Shown piece by piece: positions 3,897 to 44,390 of a DNA stretch of 44,390 nt. Positions within the stretch are counted from its first letter, which is position 1; each line of letters starts with the position of its first letter. The notes beneath the pieces are model-generated. The model ran no database searches, was not told the origin of the DNA, and saw only the letters and a program-made list of their open reading frames with translations. The position numbers were made by a program, and so were the translations under genes. Origin of the DNA: Escherichia phage 590B. The stretch lies in sequence record MW722821.1. One strand, written 5' to 3'.

Positions 3897-3920
3897 TTTT
3901 CACCTCCTGTTTAAGTTAAC

Positions 3921-3952
3921 TGAATAGTACCCTATTATATTGGGGTGTGCAA
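3921..3952 (-). promoter_or_regulatory. sigma70-type promoter (TTGCAC-N17-TACTAT), family A
   Basis: -35 at 3947-3952 and -10 at 3924-3929 read on minus strand; 32-bp element identical to 13403-13434; 28 nt upstream of gene 3693-3896. Confidence 0.6.
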
Positions 3953-13377: not shown

Positions 13378-13402
13378 AATTATTTCCTCAGTAAGTTACA
13401 TG

Positions 13403-13434
13403 TGAATAGTACCCTATTATATTGGGGTGTGCAA
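13403..13434 (-). promoter_or_regulatory. sigma70-type promoter (TTGCAC-N17-TACTAT), family A
   Basis: Identical 32-bp element to 3921-3952; upstream of gene 13051-13377. Confidence 0.6.
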
Positions 13435-26219: not shown

Positions 26220-26538
26220 TTCTAAATTCCTTATATTGTTGGGGTATGTGCTTACTATAATAGTCTGCTATTAGGGTGTCAATCTGTTTTATCGAACCAA
26301 CGACAAAAACATTTGCGCCACGTTTACGTATACGCTCGTGTTCCCGTAGCTGGTGCGGGTCTGGCTTAGTGTTTTCGTCTTTCTTCACCTCGACGAACCA
26401 GACGATGCCGCCGGGTAGAATTACCAGCAGGTCGGGGGCGCCGGAACGTCCTTCGTAGGAAAGTTTACGAACGAGGCCACCAATGGCCTCGAATCGGTCT
26501 TTTGCGTATTTCTGTATTTTGCCCTCAGGCGTACTCAT
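26203..26538 (-). CDS. VRR-NUC domain nuclease
   Basis: PD-(D/E)XK-type core GAPDLLVILPGGIVWFVEVKKDEN; ATG 26538 with GAGGGGTG SD (track start 26574 is an alternative codon). Confidence 0.65.
   Translation of the reverse strand: MSTPEGKIQKYAKDRFEAIGGLVRKLSYEGRSGAPDLLVILPGGIVWFVEVKKDENTKPDPHQLREHERIRKRGANVFVVGSIKQIDTLIADYYSKHIPQQYKEFRNETRI
26254..26282 (-). promoter_or_regulatory. sigma70-type promoter (TTGACA-N17-TATAGT), family B
   Basis: -35 26277-26282, -10 26254-26259 (minus strand); lies in the 3' end of the VRR-NUC gene, upstream of ORF 26028-26219. Confidence 0.5.
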
Positions 26539-31714: not shown

Positions 31715-32215
31715 TTATTCTTCTTCGAAATACTTGTTCTTAATCGCCGTCAGGCGTTTCAGGTATTCAGCCAGGTCTTCGTCTTTAATCGCGGCAATCT
31801 TCATTTTCTTACCGGTGAACTCCTCCAGCAGTTCATCGGAATCGTCGCACGCAGCATCGCTAGGACCTTCGTTAATTGCATCGTCGATAGCCTGAATCTG
31901 GTCACGAAGAGACTGGTAATCGACCTCTTCTTTCTCTTCTTCTGGTTCTGGAGTCGGCTCCTCTACTTTAGCTTTACGCGGCTTGCGTTTCGGCTTCTCT
32001 TCTTCTGCTGGTTTAGCGTCAACGATGTCTTCACCTTCAACCGGGATTTCTTTTGTTGCTTCTTCAGCGCACTCAGCTACCGCTTCTTTGGTGTACGATA
32101 CCGTCTCTACTTCCAGCGGCGTGGCAACCTGAACAACTTGTTTCGCACTGTTCGCGGCAATCAGTTCGTGCGCAACTACGAAACGTTCCAGTAATACTAA
32201 GAATTTCTCTAACAT
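31715..32215 (-). CDS. hypothetical highly acidic protein (Glu/Asp-rich with central basic patch)
   Basis: 166 aa, GAGGAG SD, own promoter at 32247-32275; composition EEEKPKRKPRKAKVEEPTPEPEEEKEE. Confidence 0.6.
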   Translation of the reverse strand: MLEKFLVLLERFVVAHELIAANSAKQVVQVATPLEVETVSYTKEAVAECAEEATKEIPVEGEDIVDAKPAEEEKPKRKPRKAKVEEPTPEPEEEKEEVDYQSLRDQIQAIDDAINEGPSDAACDDSDELLEEFTGKKMKIAAIKDEDLAEYLKRLTAIKNKYFEEE

Positions 32216-32246
32216 TTGTTTCTCTCCTCTCGTTTGGTATGGGCTA

Positions 32247-32275
32247 ACTATAATAGCGAACTATTCACATGTCAA
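32247..32275 (-). promoter_or_regulatory. sigma70-type promoter (TTGACA-N17-TATAGT), family B
   Basis: -35 32270-32275, -10 32247-32252; 21 of 23 spacer/-10 positions shared with the 29947 promoter; upstream of acidic-protein gene. Confidence 0.55.
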
Positions 32276-32299
32276 TGGGCTTTTCTAAAATAATTAATA

Positions 32300-32308
32300 T
32301 GGTACTAT
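32300..32308 (+). promoter_or_regulatory. extended -10 element (TGgTACTAT) for the Cro-like gene
   Basis: TG at 32300-32301 and TACTAT at 32303-32308, 31 nt upstream of ATG 32340; no good -35. Confidence 0.4.
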
Positions 32309-32339
32309 TCACATATCAACTGACTAAGGAGTAATTGAC

Positions 32340-32555
32340 ATGCAACCATCTGAACTAGGCATCCGTGTAGAACAACGCCGCAAAGAACTCGGCATCTCCC
32401 AGCGCCGTTTGGCGGCCCTGACCGGCGTTTCCCAGGGCGCGATTAACCAACTGGCACTTGGAGTAACTCAGGACGTCCGCCCGGCAACGCTGTTCAAACT
32501 GGCGGAAGTTCTGGAAGTAGACGCCAAGTGGCTGGCGTTAGGTGAAGGGGCTTAA
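32340..32555 (+). CDS. HTH XRE-family (Cro/CI-like) transcriptional regulator
   Basis: 71 aa; ELGISQRRLAALTGVSQGAINQL is a canonical XRE helix-turn-helix; TAAGGAG SD; lone plus-strand gene in the minus arm; terminator overlaps stop. Confidence 0.7.
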   Translation: MQPSELGIRVEQRRKELGISQRRLAALTGVSQGAINQLALGVTQDVRPATLFKLAEVLEVDAKWLALGEGA

Positions 32556-32572: not shown

Positions 32573-34795
32573 CTATTCCAAATCCTCCTCTGTCACCACC
32601 AGCATCTCATTTGGTTCGTATAGTGTCTTCGGCCTTAATCTATCCCCTATTCTTTCGGGTATACGATATGTTCTAGGTACTACTTCGCCGTTAGCATCGC
32701 AACCAAGCATTAGTTCTCCATCTTTCAACATTTTATCAAGATGGGTGTTAGTCACAGAGAAGTCACCGGAACGAGCCACTATCTGCTGCTGAGTAAAACC
32801 GCGACCTGTGTCATCTGACTGTTGCAGGTCTTCCAGTGCCGAAAGTATTGACTCCTTCCTTACTTCATCCCTGCCGCGTTTAACTTCTTCCTTTACTTTT
32901 TGCTTACCTTCTTTCGTCAACCCTTCTTCCCGCTCTTTCTCCTCGTCAGTTTTGAACGGCTCGAAACCCCACGGCATCAACACAAGCGCCTTGTGTGGTT
33001 CAGGAAGGTCCAGGTTTACGATTGTGCCGTATTCTTCTGTGCCCCCCAGGAACTCAACCGCACGGTACTCTTTCGGCGGCGGAGCTTCGCGGAACTGCAC
33101 AGACTCCAGCACCATGCCAACCGTTTTCTGTTGAGGACCGTGCTTAAATTTCGAGTGGTATACGTTTATTTGACGGTCGGTTGCACGTTCGATTGTCAGT
33201 TCCACGTCAACACCCGCATACAGCGCCCCACTGCCGCGTGCTTTCTTTCCACCCTTCGGCGTATGGTGGACAACGCCTACTGCGGCTTTAGTTGCATCGC
33301 GTACTTCTTTCAGAATGGCGATAACTTTACCCATGCCGATTGCTGTTGATGAACTGTTCTCGTCGAACTTATCAATCGTCAGTGCCAGGGTCTGGTTAAG
33401 GGTGTCGAACGCAACCATGCCAATTGGCTCGTCGCCAGCAGTTTCGCGCATTAACTTAATCAGGCTTTTAAGTTTGCCGACTTCGCCCATATCGATGACG
33501 TGTACATAATCTTTACCTTCCCCGCCATATTTAGCCGCTAGTGCATCAATACGGGTGCGTGTAGCTGCGCCACCCTCACCATCAATATAGAAATGGTGGC
33601 AACGCTGGGTATCCGCCCCCGCAAACCTGTACCCGGCGGCGCTGAGGTACATCATCCCCAGCGTATAGAACGATTTGTACGTGCCAGATTCCCCGACGAT
33701 ATCCCAGATACAATCCGACGGCATGTACCCCTCAACGACGAAATCAGCCTTTACCGGCTCCGGTAACTCGTCCTCCTCTGAGTCCTCGTCGTCTTCCAGG
33801 TCGTCGAGGCTGCAAGTTACTGGGTCCTCGTTCTCTGTGCGGTGTAGTTCTTCAATCTCTTCTTCCGGTAAATCAGGCAGAGCCGCACGAATGCTGTTAA
33901 TGCTGATAGGTTGCTTATCTATGTTAAGCTCGTCGGGTAGGCCACACATACGCAGGGCCAAATGCTGCCTACGGTTAAGCTCGGTGCAAGCGCCGTTGTT
34001 TGTATGCTGGCAGACAAAGCGCACTTCTTTACCGTCGAGCATTATGCTGGTGGAGCCCTTGCCTGTATGCAGATGTTCGTTAGGGCATGGCACTTCGTAC
34101 CCGCGCCCGGAAGATAAAGCGTCAAGGCCAAGCTCGGCTTCGCAGAAGTGTGCTATATCCGCGTTAAGCCCATGCTCATCAGCGGCAAGTGTTTTAGCCT
34201 CACGCTTACGCAACCCCATCTCTTCGGCTTTCTTGATGTACCGCTCAGCACGGATAACACGCCCTTCTGTAACCGTTATCTTCGACTCTTTATGCGGCAG
34301 GTAGATAAGGCGGTTGCCGTCTTCTGTGCAGTGGTCGCGCAACGCTTCGTCTATTTCTAACTCTGCACAAATAGCACGTTGCACCATCCACGCGTCGTTA
34401 GAGTTAAACGGCGTGCGAGCTGGAACCAGAACGCGGAAAGCGTAATCTCCATTTTTACATGCGTGCTGATGCGATGCCGTTGTGTGCAGAATATTGAAGA
34501 ACGGCGCGTTCTTGAATTTGCGTGTCAGGTCGCGGTACTGAGTACGGTTGAGATGGTCGAAATCGAACTTAACCACACTGTCTTCCAGGATAGCGTTTTT
34601 ACGGCGACCACCAACAGGCGCAATAGCTTTCTGTTTAATCTTGGCAGCGTCGTACTCTTCCTTAGTCCATGACGGGTCCACGGATAAACGCTTCGATGTA
34701 TCGCAGACATACTCGACAAACTGCTCCAGCGGCATTTCACGCGCTACAGGGTTTTTATCGAATGTGTTACGCAGCGTTGCAAAAACAATATTCAT
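32573..34795 (-). CDS. DNA primase/helicase (PrimPol-like N-terminal domain plus RecA/AAA-like ATPase domain)
   Basis: 740 aa; N-terminal primase-polymerase-like region, Cys/His cluster CPNEHLHTGKG...CQHTNNGAC, Walker A-like GESGTYKS, Lys/Glu-rich C-terminal extension. Confidence 0.65.
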   Translation of the reverse strand: MNIVFATLRNTFDKNPVAREMPLEQFVEYVCDTSKRLSVDPSWTKEEYDAAKIKQKAIAPVGGRRKNAILEDSVVKFDFDHLNRTQYRDLTRKFKNAPFFNILHTTASHQHACKNGDYAFRVLVPARTPFNSNDAWMVQRAICAELEIDEALRDHCTEDGNRLIYLPHKESKITVTEGRVIRAERYIKKAEEMGLRKREAKTLAADEHGLNADIAHFCEAELGLDALSSGRGYEVPCPNEHLHTGKGSTSIMLDGKEVRFVCQHTNNGACTELNRRQHLALRMCGLPDELNIDKQPISINSIRAALPDLPEEEIEELHRTENEDPVTCSLDDLEDDEDSEEDELPEPVKADFVVEGYMPSDCIWDIVGESGTYKSFYTLGMMYLSAAGYRFAGADTQRCHHFYIDGEGGAATRTRIDALAAKYGGEGKDYVHVIDMGEVGKLKSLIKLMRETAGDEPIGMVAFDTLNQTLALTIDKFDENSSSTAIGMGKVIAILKEVRDATKAAVGVVHHTPKGGKKARGSGALYAGVDVELTIERATDRQINVYHSKFKHGPQQKTVGMVLESVQFREAPPPKEYRAVEFLGGTEEYGTIVNLDLPEPHKALVLMPWGFEPFKTDEEKEREEGLTKEGKQKVKEEVKRGRDEVRKESILSALEDLQQSDDTGRGFTQQQIVARSGDFSVTNTHLDKMLKDGELMLGCDANGEVVPRTYRIPERIGDRLRPKTLYEPNEMLVVTEEDLE

Positions 34796-34920
34796 TTCTT
34801 TTTCTCCGCACGTTCTAAGGCTTCCTGCATACGGCGCATTGCGCGGTTCATCTTTACCGGCGCGAAGAAATCGGCGCCGTGTTTCTGTCGGCGCAGCTGT
34901 GGAACTATTAACTTCGTCAT
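34792..34920 (-). CDS. possible 42-aa basic protein
   Basis: Unlisted ORF with AAGGA SD; stop overlaps primase ATG (ATGA). Confidence 0.3.
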   Translation of the reverse strand: MTKLIVPQLRRQKHGADFFAPVKMNRAMRRMQEALERAEKKK

Positions 34921-34989: not shown

Positions 34990-35280
34990 TTACCGTTTAG
35001 CCAACCCTTCCAGCAAATTTTTATACTCTTCAAAATATTCCTCGACCAAATCATCGCCGAAATAGAAGTCGATATACTCGAGATTATCTCTTACGTTAAG
35101 CGATGCCGACATGGTGCTTAGTTGGCGTAAGCTAATTAGCTTCATTTCTGTTTCTACGCAGAAAGGCCGGTAGGTATCAAGATGGCAAGAGATATTGAAG
35201 CATAAAGCGAACTCTCCGGCCACGGAGTGAACCATATACACTTCGTTTTCTGCTTTATTGTGGAAAATTACGCCTTTCAT
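34990..35280 (-). CDS. hypothetical protein
   Basis: 96-aa ORF, AAGGAG SD, ATGA overlap with upstream regulator gene. Confidence 0.5.
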   Translation of the reverse strand: MKGVIFHNKAENEVYMVHSVAGEFALCFNISCHLDTYRPFCVETEMKLISLRQLSTMSASLNVRDNLEYIDFYFGDDLVEEYFEEYKNLLEGLAKR

Positions 35281-35459
35281 TTCACGTTCTCCTTAATCCA
35301 TGCTTCGACTTTATTACGGTCAAATGTTCCCGGTAAACGGCGGCCCATAACCTTAATACAGCAGTCAGGGAATTTGCCGCTGCGCAACCAGTTATTAATG
35401 GTCTGACGTGTCACCCCGATACGCTCGGCTACCTCATTCTGTGTCATGTAATGTTGCAT
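35277..35459 (-). CDS. AlpA/Xis-like helix-turn-helix DNA-binding protein
   Basis: 60 aa from ATG 35459; MTQNEVAERIGVTRQTINNWLRSGKFP matches the AlpA-type HTH pattern; first gene of the minus-strand early operon. Confidence 0.55.
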   Translation of the reverse strand: MQHYMTQNEVAERIGVTRQTINNWLRSGKFPDCCIKVMGRRLPGTFDRNKVEAWIKENVK

Positions 35460-35490
35460 TTTTATATCCCCTGTTTGTTTAGTGAAACCG

Positions 35491-35519
35491 AGTATAGGAT
35501 AGCGGGAATGTAAAAGCAA
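35491..35519 (-). promoter_or_regulatory. sigma70-type promoter (TTGCTT-N17-TATACT) for minus-strand early operon
   Basis: -35 35514-35519, -10 35491-35496 on minus strand; about 30 nt upstream of ATG 35459. Confidence 0.45.
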
Positions 35520-35556
35520 CCAATCCCTGCAATATTTAATCTTTACAAAAAAGTTA

Positions 35557-35586
35557 TTGAAAGTTCTTGACACATGTTTGTATAAT
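35557..35586 (+). promoter_or_regulatory. sigma70-type promoter (TTGAAA-N18-TATAAT), divergent from 35491-35519
   Basis: Consensus -10 TATAAT at 35581-35586; would start a plus-strand transcript across a 350-bp ORF-free leader. Confidence 0.45.
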
Positions 35587-35785
35587 GGTTTTGGGACTTG
35601 TATATATTACGGAGTTGACGAACCCTCCCCGAGGGATTCGTCAACCCCTCCCAGACAGCTGAGATGCTTGCCTTGTGGTTTAAGGATAAGTGTATCTAAA
35701 TCTCATTTAAAGAAGTAACCCGCTGAAATATCTACTGTTTCTTAATGTGCCGTAGATTCGCAACCGTAAAAATGTAACGATTATT

Positions 35786-35810
35786 GGGCAGGCTTAAGGC
35801 CTGCCCTTTA
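35786..35810 (+). terminator. hairpin terminator / attenuator in early leader
   Basis: GGGCAGGC-TTAA-GCCTGCCC followed by TTTA (short U-tract). Confidence 0.4.
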
Positions 35811-35878
35811 GTTACCAAGTAATAAGAATAAAGGCACAACCCTACCTGAAGAATCACAACGGCAACGTAACTAATATC

Positions 35879-35907
35879 TTGCACACCCCAACATAATAGG
35901 ATACTAT
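35879..35907 (+). promoter_or_regulatory. sigma70-type promoter (TTGCAC-N17-TACTAT), family A
   Basis: -35 35879-35884, 17-bp spacer, -10 35902-35907; 30/32 identical to the 3921 element; about 30 nt upstream of first early gene. Confidence 0.6.
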
Positions 35908-35935
35908 TCACTTATCGAAACGAGACGGAGGAGTG

Positions 35936-36133
35936 ATGGTTATGTTTAAGAAGGGTCAGTTAGTAAAAACTATATACGGTAGCTTAGGTATTATTGAAAA
36001 GAAATCGACAGTGTATCGAAGTTCTTATGTCGTTAGCTTACTAAGGGAGCACGGGTTAAGTTCCGCGGCGTATTACCAAGAGTATGAAATGAAGCTCATC
36101 GGCAACAATTTTAAATTCAAAGGGGCGAAGTGA
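35936..36133 (+). CDS. hypothetical early protein
   Basis: First ORF after promoter 35879-35907; GGAGGA SD at 35927-35932; start could be 35933 (GTG), 35936 or 35942 (ATG). Confidence 0.45.
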   Translation: MVMFKKGQLVKTIYGSLGIIEKKSTVYRSSYVVSLLREHGLSSAAYYQEYEMKLIGNNFKFKGAK

Positions 36134-36996: not shown

Positions 36997-37035
36997 TTAC
37001 GCTGCTACACAGCAGCGTATCATTTTTCTCATTTT
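36997..37035 (+). terminator. rho-independent terminator after first early operon
   Basis: TACGCTGCT-ACACA-GCAGCGTA followed by TCATTTTTCTCATTTTT. Confidence 0.6.
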
Positions 37036-37112: not shown

Positions 37113-37141
37113 TTGCACACTAAGATAGAATAGGCTACTAT
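37113..37141 (+). promoter_or_regulatory. sigma70-type promoter (TTGCAC-N17-TACTAT), family A
   Basis: -35 37113-37118, -10 37136-37141; 32 nt upstream of ORF 37173. Confidence 0.55.
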
Positions 37142-37172
37142 TCATTTACACAAACTAGAGGAGAGACAGAGG

Positions 37173-43180: not shown

Positions 43181-44390
43181 TATCACGGCAACGGAGCCGC
43201 AAGGCGCGTTTCTCGGTATGCATTGCAAGTTTCCGGCATTCGTAGCTGGCTTCGGTACGGGTAAATCCGAAGTTATGTGCAACTCTGCACTACTCGACAG
43301 CATGGAAGGTGGTAGCGATTCTATCATCGCCATGTATGAGCCGACTTATGACCTGGTGCGCCTCATCCTTGCACCGCGTATGGAAGAAAAGCTCACCGAC
43401 TGGGGTATCCGGTACAAATACAACAAGTCTGACAACATAATCTATACGTCTTCCGGACAATTTGGGGATTTTGTTCTGCGTACACTTGATAATCCAGCAC
43501 GAATCGTTGGCTACGAATCGTTTCGTGCGAAAATCGACGAGTTGGACACCCTTAACATGGAGCACGCCGAGCACGCGTGGAACAAAGTCATCGCCCGTAA
43601 CCGCCAGTTGCCGCGGACATATAAACCTATTACACCGAAACCTGCTAATACCGTTTCCGTGTTCACTACCCCGGAAGGATTCCGTTTCGTACATGACCGC
43701 TGGGTAGTCAAAAAGAATCCAGGCTACGAGATGATTCAGGCGTCCACCCTGTCTAACCCGTTCCTGCCAGAAGATTATGTGCAGTCGTTACGCGACACAT
43801 ACCCAGGTCAGTTGATTGACGCCTACATCAACGGCGAGTTCGTCAACCTGACGGCGGGGACTGTCTATTACGCCTATGACCGCAGGAAAAACAGCAGCCG
43901 CGAAACAATAAAACCAGGCGAGACTCTGTATATCGGGCAGGACTTTAACGTAGGCCACATGGCTAGTACAGTTTACGTGCAACGTGGCAAAGTCTGGCAT
44001 GCAGTCGCCGAGTTGGTGGATATGTTCGATACGCCCGATGTGGTGAGAGCCGTAACAGAGCGCTGGAAAAGTAAGGGCCACTATATCGTTATGTACCCCG
44101 ACGCAAGCGGTAAAAACCGTAAAAGTAACAACGCCAGCACATCTGATATTGCCCAGTTACAGCAGGCCGGCTTCGAAGTGCGCGCTAAATCGACAAACCC
44201 ACCGGTTAAAGACCGCGTAGCGGCGATGAATAAGGCGCTTGAATCTGGTATGGTCATGATTAATGAGCAGGCTTGCCCGGTTACCGCACGATGCCTGGAG
44301 CAACAGGCTTACGACAAGAACGGCGAACCGGATAAATCAGGCGGTGTGGACCACCAGAATGATGGAACCACATACCCTATCGCGTATGAA
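43170..44390 (+). CDS. terL: terminase large subunit (3' end truncated by window; continues as 1-595)
   Basis: GTG 43170 with AAGGTGG SD, overlapping terS stop; Walker A-like GFGTGKS; reading frame runs to window end. Confidence 0.7.
   Translation, partial: MNVNITATEPQGAFLGMHCKFPAFVAGFGTGKSEVMCNSALLDSMEGGSDSIIAMYEPTYDLVRLILAPRMEEKLTDWGIRYKYNKSDNIIYTSSGQFGDFVLRTLDNPARIVGYESFRAKIDELDTLNMEHAEHAWNKVIARNRQLPRTYKPITPKPANTVSVFTTPEGFRFVHDRWVVKKNPGYEMIQASTLSNPFLPEDYVQSLRDTYPGQLIDAYINGEFVNLTAGTVYYAYDRRKNSSRETIKPGETLYIGQDFNVGHMASTVYVQRGKVWHAVAELVDMFDTPDVVRAVTERWKSKGHYIVMYPDASGKNRKSNNASTSDIAQLQQAGFEVRAKSTNPPVKDRVAAMNKALESGMVMINEQACPVTARCLEQQAYDKNGEPDKSGGVDHQNDGTTYPIAYE
43847..44390. repeat. 544-bp terminal direct repeat (exact copy of 1-544)
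   Basis: See partner repeat. Confidence 0.85.

Follow-up and report, generated by a model that had tools for sequence, protein, structure and literature searches.

The genome of Escherichia phage 590B (MW722821.1), analyzed here as one stretch of 44,390 nucleotides (the window), carries at positions 35460-35935 the rightward half of the only divergent early control region of the phage, and the non-coding leader that fills this segment, together with the structured RNA that it may encode, is the subject of the present analysis. The window represents a complete, circularly permuted genome of a Kagunavirus (subfamily Guernseyvirinae): positions 1-300 recur with 100% identity at positions 43847-44146, which indicates a genome of 43,846 bp read approximately 544 bp beyond its own start. 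The leader region is 95-98% identical to those of the BASEL phages Bas70-76, of fBC-Eco01, K1B4 and other phages. In the annotated close relative Bas71 (82 genes, 99.7% identity in the leader), the corresponding intergenic region is the sole point from which genes are read in both directions. According to the Bas71 annotation, with which our Pfam and PHROG scans agreed, the leftward arm encodes a small HTH_17 DNA-binding protein, a helicase-primase, an exonuclease, a single-stranded DNA-binding protein and a DNA polymerase, and the rightward arm, of about 30 kb, begins with approximately 14 tiny genes without assigned function, followed by holins and endolysin and then by genes for terminase, portal, head and tail. 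The phage encodes no RNA polymerase, and internal terminators lie in the rightward arm at positions 36998, 2100, 4228 and 6619. To our knowledge, the control of gene expression has not been studied in Kagunaviruses and Jerseyviruses, and we know of no RNA-based regulator in these virulent siphophages. The features of the control region are compiled in Table 1.

Table 1. Features of the divergent control region of phage 590B and of the genes that flank it (window coordinates)
Feature	Position	Strand	Description
First gene of the leftward arm	35277-35459	minus	60-amino-acid HTH_17 (excisionase/AlpA-like) DNA-binding protein; Pfam HTH_17, E = 1.6e-8; PHROG 66
P_L, leftward promoter	35491-35519	minus	TTGCTT (35519-35514), 17 nt, TATACT (35496-35491); 8/12 consensus; below the scanner cut-off
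P1, rightward sigma70-type promoter (predicted)	35557-35586	plus	TTGAAA (35557-35562), 18 nt, TATAAT (35581-35586); 11/12 consensus
5' rod-like hairpin	35611-35648	plus	14-bp stem (35614-35645) with one bulged A, CCC loop and GG/CC extension; approximately 16 pairs
Second, weaker hairpin	35664-35693	plus	GCUUGCCUU / AAGGAUAAGU; -9.1 kcal/mol, z = -2.7; 15 nt from the 5' rod
3' cassette (core)	35723-35848	plus	TGCCGTAG box (35748-35755), motif GATTCGCAACCGTAAAAATGTAACGATTA (35755-35783), T_A, A-rich tail AAGAATAAAGGCAC
T_A, intrinsic-terminator-like hairpin	35786-35813	plus	Stem 35786-35794 with 35798-35806; 9 pairs (7 G-C), 3-nt loop; tail UUUAGUU
C-rich, G-poor untranslated stretch	35835-35912	plus	Directly after T_A; C/G ratio 2.78, 99.5th percentile of the 78-nt windows of the genome
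Pre-P2 motif	35851-35876	plus	GAATCACAACGGCAACGTAACTAATA; conserved across all Kagunavirus module types (sequence and alignment A2)
P2, phage-specific promoter	35879-35908	plus	TTGCAC (35879-35884), 17 nt, TACTAT (35902-35907); palindrome AATAG-N4-CTATT (35895-35908) over the -10
First gene of the rightward arm	35939-36133	plus	64 amino acids, no assigned function; PHROG 12538

An earlier note on this DNA had proposed that two back-to-back promoters launch the two arms, and both were recovered at the same coordinates. The predicted rightward promoter, P1, joins hexamers close to TTGACA and TATAAT by a spacer within the 16-18 nt typical of sigma70 promoters, and was the best promoter-like site found by the promoter scan across 34.5-37 kb. 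Since the number of promoter-like sites in this interval (four observed versus 4.0 expected from shuffled sequences) and likewise that of terminator-like sites did not exceed chance, the case is carried by the quality and the conservation of the individual sites. Across eight relatives P1 showed one variable column in about 60, its flanks having approximately 17% variable columns. In fBC-Eco01, P1 is annotated as 'host promoter3', the terminator-like hairpin T_A as a terminator and P2 as phage promoter6, all three by prediction programs only. The -10 hexamer of the leftward promoter P_L was unchanged in 17 diverse relatives, and its counterpart in relatives L004 and L003 (TTGATT-17-TATACT) was picked up by the scanner. 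The transcript from P1 would start near G35593. A TA repeat at 35599-35608, 2 nt longer in Bas72, places a -10-like TATATT at +11 to +16 of the predicted transcript, and this element could act as a sigma-dependent promoter-proximal pause site.

Between positions 35593 and 35932 of the plus strand, the longest open reading frame (ORF) has 16 codons with a TTG start and 11 codons with an ATG start, which upholds the earlier claim that the rightward transcript crosses about 350 bp devoid of ORFs. A small protein-coding gene with a conserved frame and a ribosome-binding site (RBS), named by the earlier note as the finding that would replace a non-coding RNA, was looked for in the leader and not found, and 1-nt indels occur inside the conserved cassette. 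Several BASEL annotations place 'hypothetical proteins' on the minus strand over the leader, at positions equivalent to 35543-35644 and 35732-35911 (Bas71_0054/0055, Bas76_0055/0056 and Bas73_0055); these are probably false gene calls, because 1-nt indels interrupt their frames in relatives and close relatives have other sequence in place of the whole segments.

The predicted 220-nt RNA (35593-35812) folds at -69.8 kcal/mol, compared with -50.9 ± 4.0 kcal/mol for shuffled sequences (z = -4.7). Its most prominent element is the 5' rod-like hairpin (-23.8 kcal/mol, z = -5.25), an equally good fold of which was obtained in none of 200 shuffles. The 14-bp stem of this hairpin had been recognized in the earlier note and was confirmed, its distance from the predicted start being corrected from about 30 nt to about 20 nt. 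In the second hairpin, three changes among relatives retain pairing (C-G to U.G twice and G.U to A-U). In the eight window-type sequences, P1 and both arms of the 5' hairpin were invariant, the sole change in the hairpin falling in its loop, and a single pairing cell of the RNA was broken, at the indel of the TA repeat. Overall, P1 and the RNA were approximately three times less variable than the adjoining sequence in these close relatives. The window-type 5' module (35587-35722) was restricted to 20 records, all Kagunaviruses with 96-100% identity, in a BLAST search of 50,697 phage records. A further small hairpin (35730-35735 paired with 35752-35757) was rejected as too weak (-4.2 kcal/mol, z = -1.1), despite GU, AU and GC variation at one pair.

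The terminator-like hairpin that the earlier note had placed at 35786-35810 is likewise present, its stem and loop spanning 35786-35806 and being followed by the tail TTTAGTT. This hairpin, T_A, has the G+C-rich stem of an intrinsic terminator and passed the scanner rule (at least five T in eight bases of tail), with three contiguous U only. It folds at -21.9 kcal/mol on the plus strand versus -17.7 kcal/mol on the minus strand, and the T tail is found on the plus strand only. In 22 distinct sequences, 99.5% of the cells of the stem pair, compared with 28-58% in slid controls, and one pair is changed from C-G to U-A in five of the 22, a compensatory change. T_A is embedded in a 3' cassette, a 108-bp part of which (35723-35830) was detected by BLAST in 334 of the same phage records at 86-100% identity, 266 of them from Salmonella phages. 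The mean column identity of the cassette alignment (A3) was 91%, and the unpaired bases upstream of T_A, as well as about 30 nt downstream of it, were nearly invariant. The motif at the centre of the cassette, GATTCGCAACCGTAAAAATGTAACGATTA, and the pre-P2 motif, GAATCACAACGGCAACGTAACTAATA, are paralogues, and the 3' end of the cassette, AAGAATAAAGGCAC, equals the sequence immediately before the -35 of P2 in Jerseyviruses. For these reasons the cassette looks like a tandem duplicate of the promoter-upstream unit that gained or kept a hairpin, and such a duplicate origin would explain part of its conservation beyond the stem. The stretch that follows, which is richer in C and poorer in G than any other part of the leader, could load Rho, in the manner of a rut site, on RNA that reads through T_A.

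The architecture of the leader was then compared among relatives, represented by 47 IMG/VR loci fetched with the helicase-primase, 26 metagenome loci fetched with a conserved 19-mer and several GenBank records; a search of viral contigs with a 14-nt pattern was discarded, the pattern being too short and returning mostly unrelated contigs. The intergenic region occurs in 48-54 distinct versions forming six sequence clusters, with leader lengths of 380-425 bp, or 520 bp in Jerseyviruses that carry an extra unit. All six clusters share the same order of elements: a leftward promoter, a rightward promoter, a GC-rich irregular hairpin, a middle segment, a TGCCGTAR box, a terminator-like hairpin and P2. 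The long hairpin is always located 20-50 nt after the predicted start, and its positional variants each fold to rods of -14 to -35 kcal/mol. In type d, the rightward promoter is near-consensus (TTGACA-16-TAAAAT, 11/12). Three alternative terminator-like hairpins were distinguished: T_A; T_B, consisting of GGGGTGGGC/GCCCACCC nested in AGAGTAC/GTACTCT and followed by UUUAAAG; and T_C, consisting of GGTGCC-TTCG-GGCACC followed by a T-rich tail. In many Kagunaviruses T_A and its cassette are replaced by T_B or T_C, and in some Jerseyviruses (L043-45) the cassette is missing. Phages with 100% identical HTH_17 genes can bear wholly different leaders. A C-rich, G-poor (CTCA)n microsatellite lies just before the T_C hairpin in L014-L018, L028, L192 and L200, and is expanded in L018.

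This mosaic provides evidence of selection on RNA. Analysis with RNAalifold revealed compensatory double changes in four of the 17 pairs of the type c hairpins, one pair being seen as U-A, A-U and C-G, and compensatory changes in four of the 13 pairs of the type b hairpins. Together with the changed pair of T_A, these substitutions bear on the covariation across related phages that the earlier note had proposed as a check. Furthermore, each of the type c rods (23-27 pairs) includes 3-6 G.U pairs, and the plus strand folds 8-11 kcal/mol better than its complement, which points to a plus-strand RNA rather than to a double-stranded DNA operator. As judged from these alignments, the hairpins that stand in the equivalent position in relatives are under RNA-level selection. 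In addition, the type-d hairpin of L035, L189, L199 and L205 has an inner part, GCCCCGC-CCUAAA-GCGGGGC-GCUAAAC, resembling the repeat of the type I-E CRISPR (clustered regularly interspaced short palindromic repeats) system of E. coli and Salmonella (CCCCGC-GCCA-GCGGGG-AUAAACCG). The similarity, which is not preserved in the variants of L192 and L200, prompts the idea of an RNA anti-CRISPR.

The same comparison bears on the view that the leader has no dedicated function, being a recombination-scarred spacer of duplicated promoter-upstream units in which a promoter and hairpins arose fortuitously. The duplicate-like structure of the cassette and the chance-level counts of promoter-like and terminator-like sites would be expected of such a spacer. 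Against it, six unrelated versions of the sequence retain the architecture and a length of about 400 bp, the hairpins show compensatory changes, P1 is nearly invariant, and 470 non-coding bp are retained at the control region of a compact 44-kb virulent phage genome, so that we regard a mere spacer as very unlikely.

Alternatively, the region might act mainly as DNA, with the cassette and its motifs binding a phage regulator or the helicase-primase, as in an origin or a transcription-activated origin, and with hairpins that are incidental or form in single-stranded DNA. The region adjoins the replication genes and contains both the lowest G+C content of the genome (0.41) and the minimum of the cumulative GC skew; the repeated motifs GTAWCTGA and the GATTCGCAACCG / GAATCACAACGG pair are suggestive only, and the conservation that reaches unpaired positions and extends beyond the terminator would also suit protein-binding DNA. 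However, the GC-skew minimum coincides with the switch of the coding strand, and the hairpin type is independent of the type of the helicase-primase N-terminal domain. Moreover, the cassette is replaced in types c and d, and the Jerseyviruses L043-45 lack both it and the pre-P2 motif; being dispensable, the cassette cannot serve as an essential origin or as a packaging site. The G.U-dependent strand bias and the compensatory changes in the equivalent hairpins also point away from DNA. On balance, a DNA-level element is highly improbable, and the earlier suggestion that the leader may contain the origin of replication gained no specific support. A physical genome end or pac site within the cassette was also rejected: only two of the 334 records (templet and celemicas) start inside the 108-bp element, compared with approximately 0.9 expected by chance, and the start of the templet record is a mere circular permutation.

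Considering the elements themselves, the layout shared with relatives and the covariation in the equivalent hairpins, the best available reading is that the control region forms a self-contained early transcription unit yielding a structured non-coding RNA of about 220 nt, or an attenuated leader, as the earlier note had suggested; we estimate its probability at roughly 0.5. The host RNA polymerase would start at P1 (about 35593) immediately after infection, an early timing in keeping with the homologue of the divergent HTH_17 gene, which is one of four 'early' genes in the transcriptome, of gene-level resolution, of phage K1B4 (PMC12645636), which carries the same leader module. Transcription would yield an untranslated structured RNA, the 14-bp hairpin forming about 20 nt from its 5' end. 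Some 215-220 nt downstream, the polymerase would meet T_A, where a fraction of the transcripts would end and release the non-coding RNA of about 220 nt, and the remaining transcripts would continue across the untranslated, C-rich stretch in the direction of P2 and of the first small gene. The hairpin might serve in stabilization or RNase III processing, in the control of elongation in a nut- or put-like manner, or in trans.

Several observations weigh against this reading. The U tract of T_A is only UUU-AG-UU, and owing to its shortness termination is expected to be partial and is probably leaky. The conservation of the cassette past the terminator is no better explained by an RNA role than by protein sites at the DNA level or by recent horizontal spread. 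The P1 counterparts of types b and c have a perfect or near-perfect -35 and a weak -10 (TAAGGT, TAAGTT or TAAGCT), and because the scanner gives no call for them, their place in the shared architecture is a reading by eye, not a tool result. In Jerseyviruses without the cassette, no U-tailed terminator-like hairpin precedes the genes, and P1 would give a plain long 5' untranslated region. Finally, the window's own hairpin shows no covariation, since its module is nearly invariant and its 20 near-identical copies hold no informative variation; its pairs are all Watson-Crick and its two strands fold equally well, and an RNA-level role for it is thus suggested by analogy with the hairpins at the same position in relatives.

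The closest functional analogue is found in the pR'-6S RNA-tR' unit of phage lambda and the StxS RNA of Stx phages, in which a strong unregulated sigma70 promoter gives an untranslated RNA of about 200 nt that ends at an intrinsic terminator before a long lysis and structural operon; the lambda unit illustrates that a terminated leader can itself be a stable RNA. The 590B leader resembles them in its strong promoter and its terminated untranslated RNA of similar length before a long operon, but differs in lacking any sequence similarity and in that another promoter, the phage-specific P2, separates the terminator from the genes. No Q-type antiterminator is annotated among the 82 genes of Bas71, remote homology not having been searched. 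Hairpins processed by RNase III, such as T7 R0.3 and that of the lambda N leader, are long, irregular, located in untranslated early leaders and conserved in shape rather than in sequence, with about 20 bp of double-stranded RNA. The leader hairpins share the conserved shape and variable sequence, and in type c relatives they comprise 23-27 pairs, whereas the predicted stem of the window is short (approximately 16 pairs). Lambda oop RNA, a short promoter-to-terminator phage RNA antisense to cII, is comparable as a small self-contained unit without ORFs in a phage control region, but differs in that no antisense or trans target was found here among the phage translation-initiation regions. We regard the leader as a previously undescribed RNA locus that adds a member to a familiar kind rather than a category of its own.

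A stand-alone early small RNA acting in trans on RNAs or proteins of the host or of the phage, either to take over the host or to serve as a decoy against defences, with the hairpin heads and cassettes as specificity modules, would account for a self-contained, gene-less unit running from promoter to terminator, for a structure under selection in relatives and for the very strong conservation, in both Escherichia and Salmonella phages, of the unpaired bases upstream of the terminator. The extreme module swapping, with unrelated leaders beside identical HTH_17 genes, is also typical of accessory or counter-defence loci. Nevertheless, in a crude test (RNAduplex without accessibility) covering 80 translation-initiation regions of the phage, the best duplex reached -48.5 kcal/mol, equal to the mean of shuffled RNAs (-48.3 ± 3.0 kcal/mol). 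The short U tail of T_A lacks the length characteristic of Hfq-dependent RNAs, the conservation continues beyond the terminator, and no Rfam relative was recognized, with no match at the gathering threshold in the window and none at E <= 1 in nine relatives; the best sub-threshold match of the region at E <= 10 was Hrs12 (22.6 bits versus a threshold of 70). In view of this, we consider a dedicated trans-acting RNA unlikely. Neither tRNA nor tmRNA genes were detected in the window, no host homologue of the leader was found in 5,426 E. coli genomes, and an 18-mer of the cassette matched bacterial genomes (596 Gb) 15 times, always in unrelated taxa, against approximately 17 matches expected by chance.

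The position of a shape-conserved hairpin between a strong early promoter and a terminator is also what would be expected of a processive antitermination site, at which the hairpin modifies the polymerase coming from P1, either alone, as HK022 put does, or with Nus factors and a phage protein, as lambda nut does, so that it passes T_A, Rho sites and the terminators of the arm. A phage without its own RNA polymerase, whose long arm of early, lysis and structural genes holds internal terminators, could use such a device, and a C-rich, rut-like stretch follows T_A. As in the nut sites of lambda and P22, a hairpin of variable sequence and conserved shape stands in the early leader near a U/C-rich boxA-like string (AUCUCAUUUAAAG at 35700-35712, with the related GUCUAUUUAAAU in type d and GCUCUAUUC in type b) and C-rich stretches, upstream of terminators. 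Yet the order and spacing are different. The boxA-like string was judged unconvincing, as it requires an indel to match the consensus (GCUCUUUA) and lies 52 nt 3' of the hairpin. The boxB of lambda and P22 is a 5-bp stem with a GNRA-like pentaloop, unlike the 14-bp rod with its CCC triloop. No boxA consensus at the right spacing, boxB pentaloop or co-varying Arg-rich N protein was found in the leader and the fetched flanks.

With regard to partner proteins, none co-varied with the hairpin variant (adjusted Rand index at most 0.4) in the fetched flanks, which extended as far as 3 kb past the helicase-primase gene. A 42-amino-acid Arg/Lys-rich ORF (MTKLIVPQLRRQKHG...; PHROG 23061, no assigned function) is located on the minus strand at 34792-34920, with the helicase-primase gene directly downstream. 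It accompanies one type of helicase N-terminal domain, and phages with differing leader hairpin types have identical copies of it. The put element of HK022 is about 70 nt long and comprises two adjacent long stem-loops of conserved sequence just downstream of the early promoters in both arms (PMC9378689). The 590B leader is similar in that a structured RNA directly follows an early sigma70 promoter and precedes terminators, with the -10-like element described above in the initial transcribed sequence. It is dissimilar in having one 38-nt rod with a weak hairpin 15 nt away, in one arm only, the leftward leader measuring only about 25 nt, and in a hairpin sequence that is wholly different between module types, which is hard to square with recognition of one polymerase surface. 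An antitermination site is consequently quite unlikely.

A broader proposal builds on the module exchange: the Guernseyvirinae may carry an undescribed family of early structured RNAs that the host polymerase makes and whose modules are interchangeable (at least four hairpin heads and three terminator cassettes), in which the RNA itself would be the effector, for instance as a decoy against a host defence or takeover target, or a factor-independent, put-like antiterminator of a virulent siphophage outside the lambdoid group. We put it forward tentatively, as a doubtful extension of the findings. If it were true, the rapid swapping of modules would reflect an arms race, and an antiterminator or trans effector would add an RNA-based regulator to this group of virulent siphophages. 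Kagunaviruses, like Jerseyviruses, are widely isolated with phage therapy and food safety in view, and the BASEL reference collection includes seven Kagunaviruses (Bas70-76). In these phages a single divergent control region holds a mosaic non-coding unit of conserved architecture, over which probable false gene calls in the deposited annotations can now be flagged.

Downstream of this unit, the second promoter that the earlier note had placed just before the first rightward gene turned out to be a copy of a repeated, phage-specific motif. The P2 motif has six matches in the window with at most three mismatches, compared with zero expected, and equals the PHIRE 'phage promoter' consensus of fBC-Eco01. 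Four copies (3920, 13402, 35893 and 37127) are situated approximately 30 nt before an RBS and ATG; the copies of the family span 3920-3952 and 13402-13434 on the minus strand and 35879-35911 and 37113-37145 on the plus strand. A phage regulator, perhaps the HTH_17 protein, probably uses the palindrome over the -10 of P2 as its operator; the first rightward genes would also be served by a promoter of their own under separate regulation. The rightward arm follows a pattern of a P2-type promoter, a few genes and a terminator, as seen where the terminator at 36998 precedes the P2-type promoter at 37127, and the segment from P1 to T_A fits this pattern as an initial unit devoid of genes. Related sites at 26257, 29950 and 32250 read as promoters of the minus strand that combine a consensus -35 with the same palindrome, here placed in the spacer. 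Back to back with the last of these, inside the leftward replication arm (32246-32345), stands a P2-type motif on the plus strand (32294-32312), after which come AGGAG and, at about 32340, an ATG. This site, which falls between the genes at 31715-32215 and 32573-34795, may represent a very small gene of the plus strand or an antisense unit.

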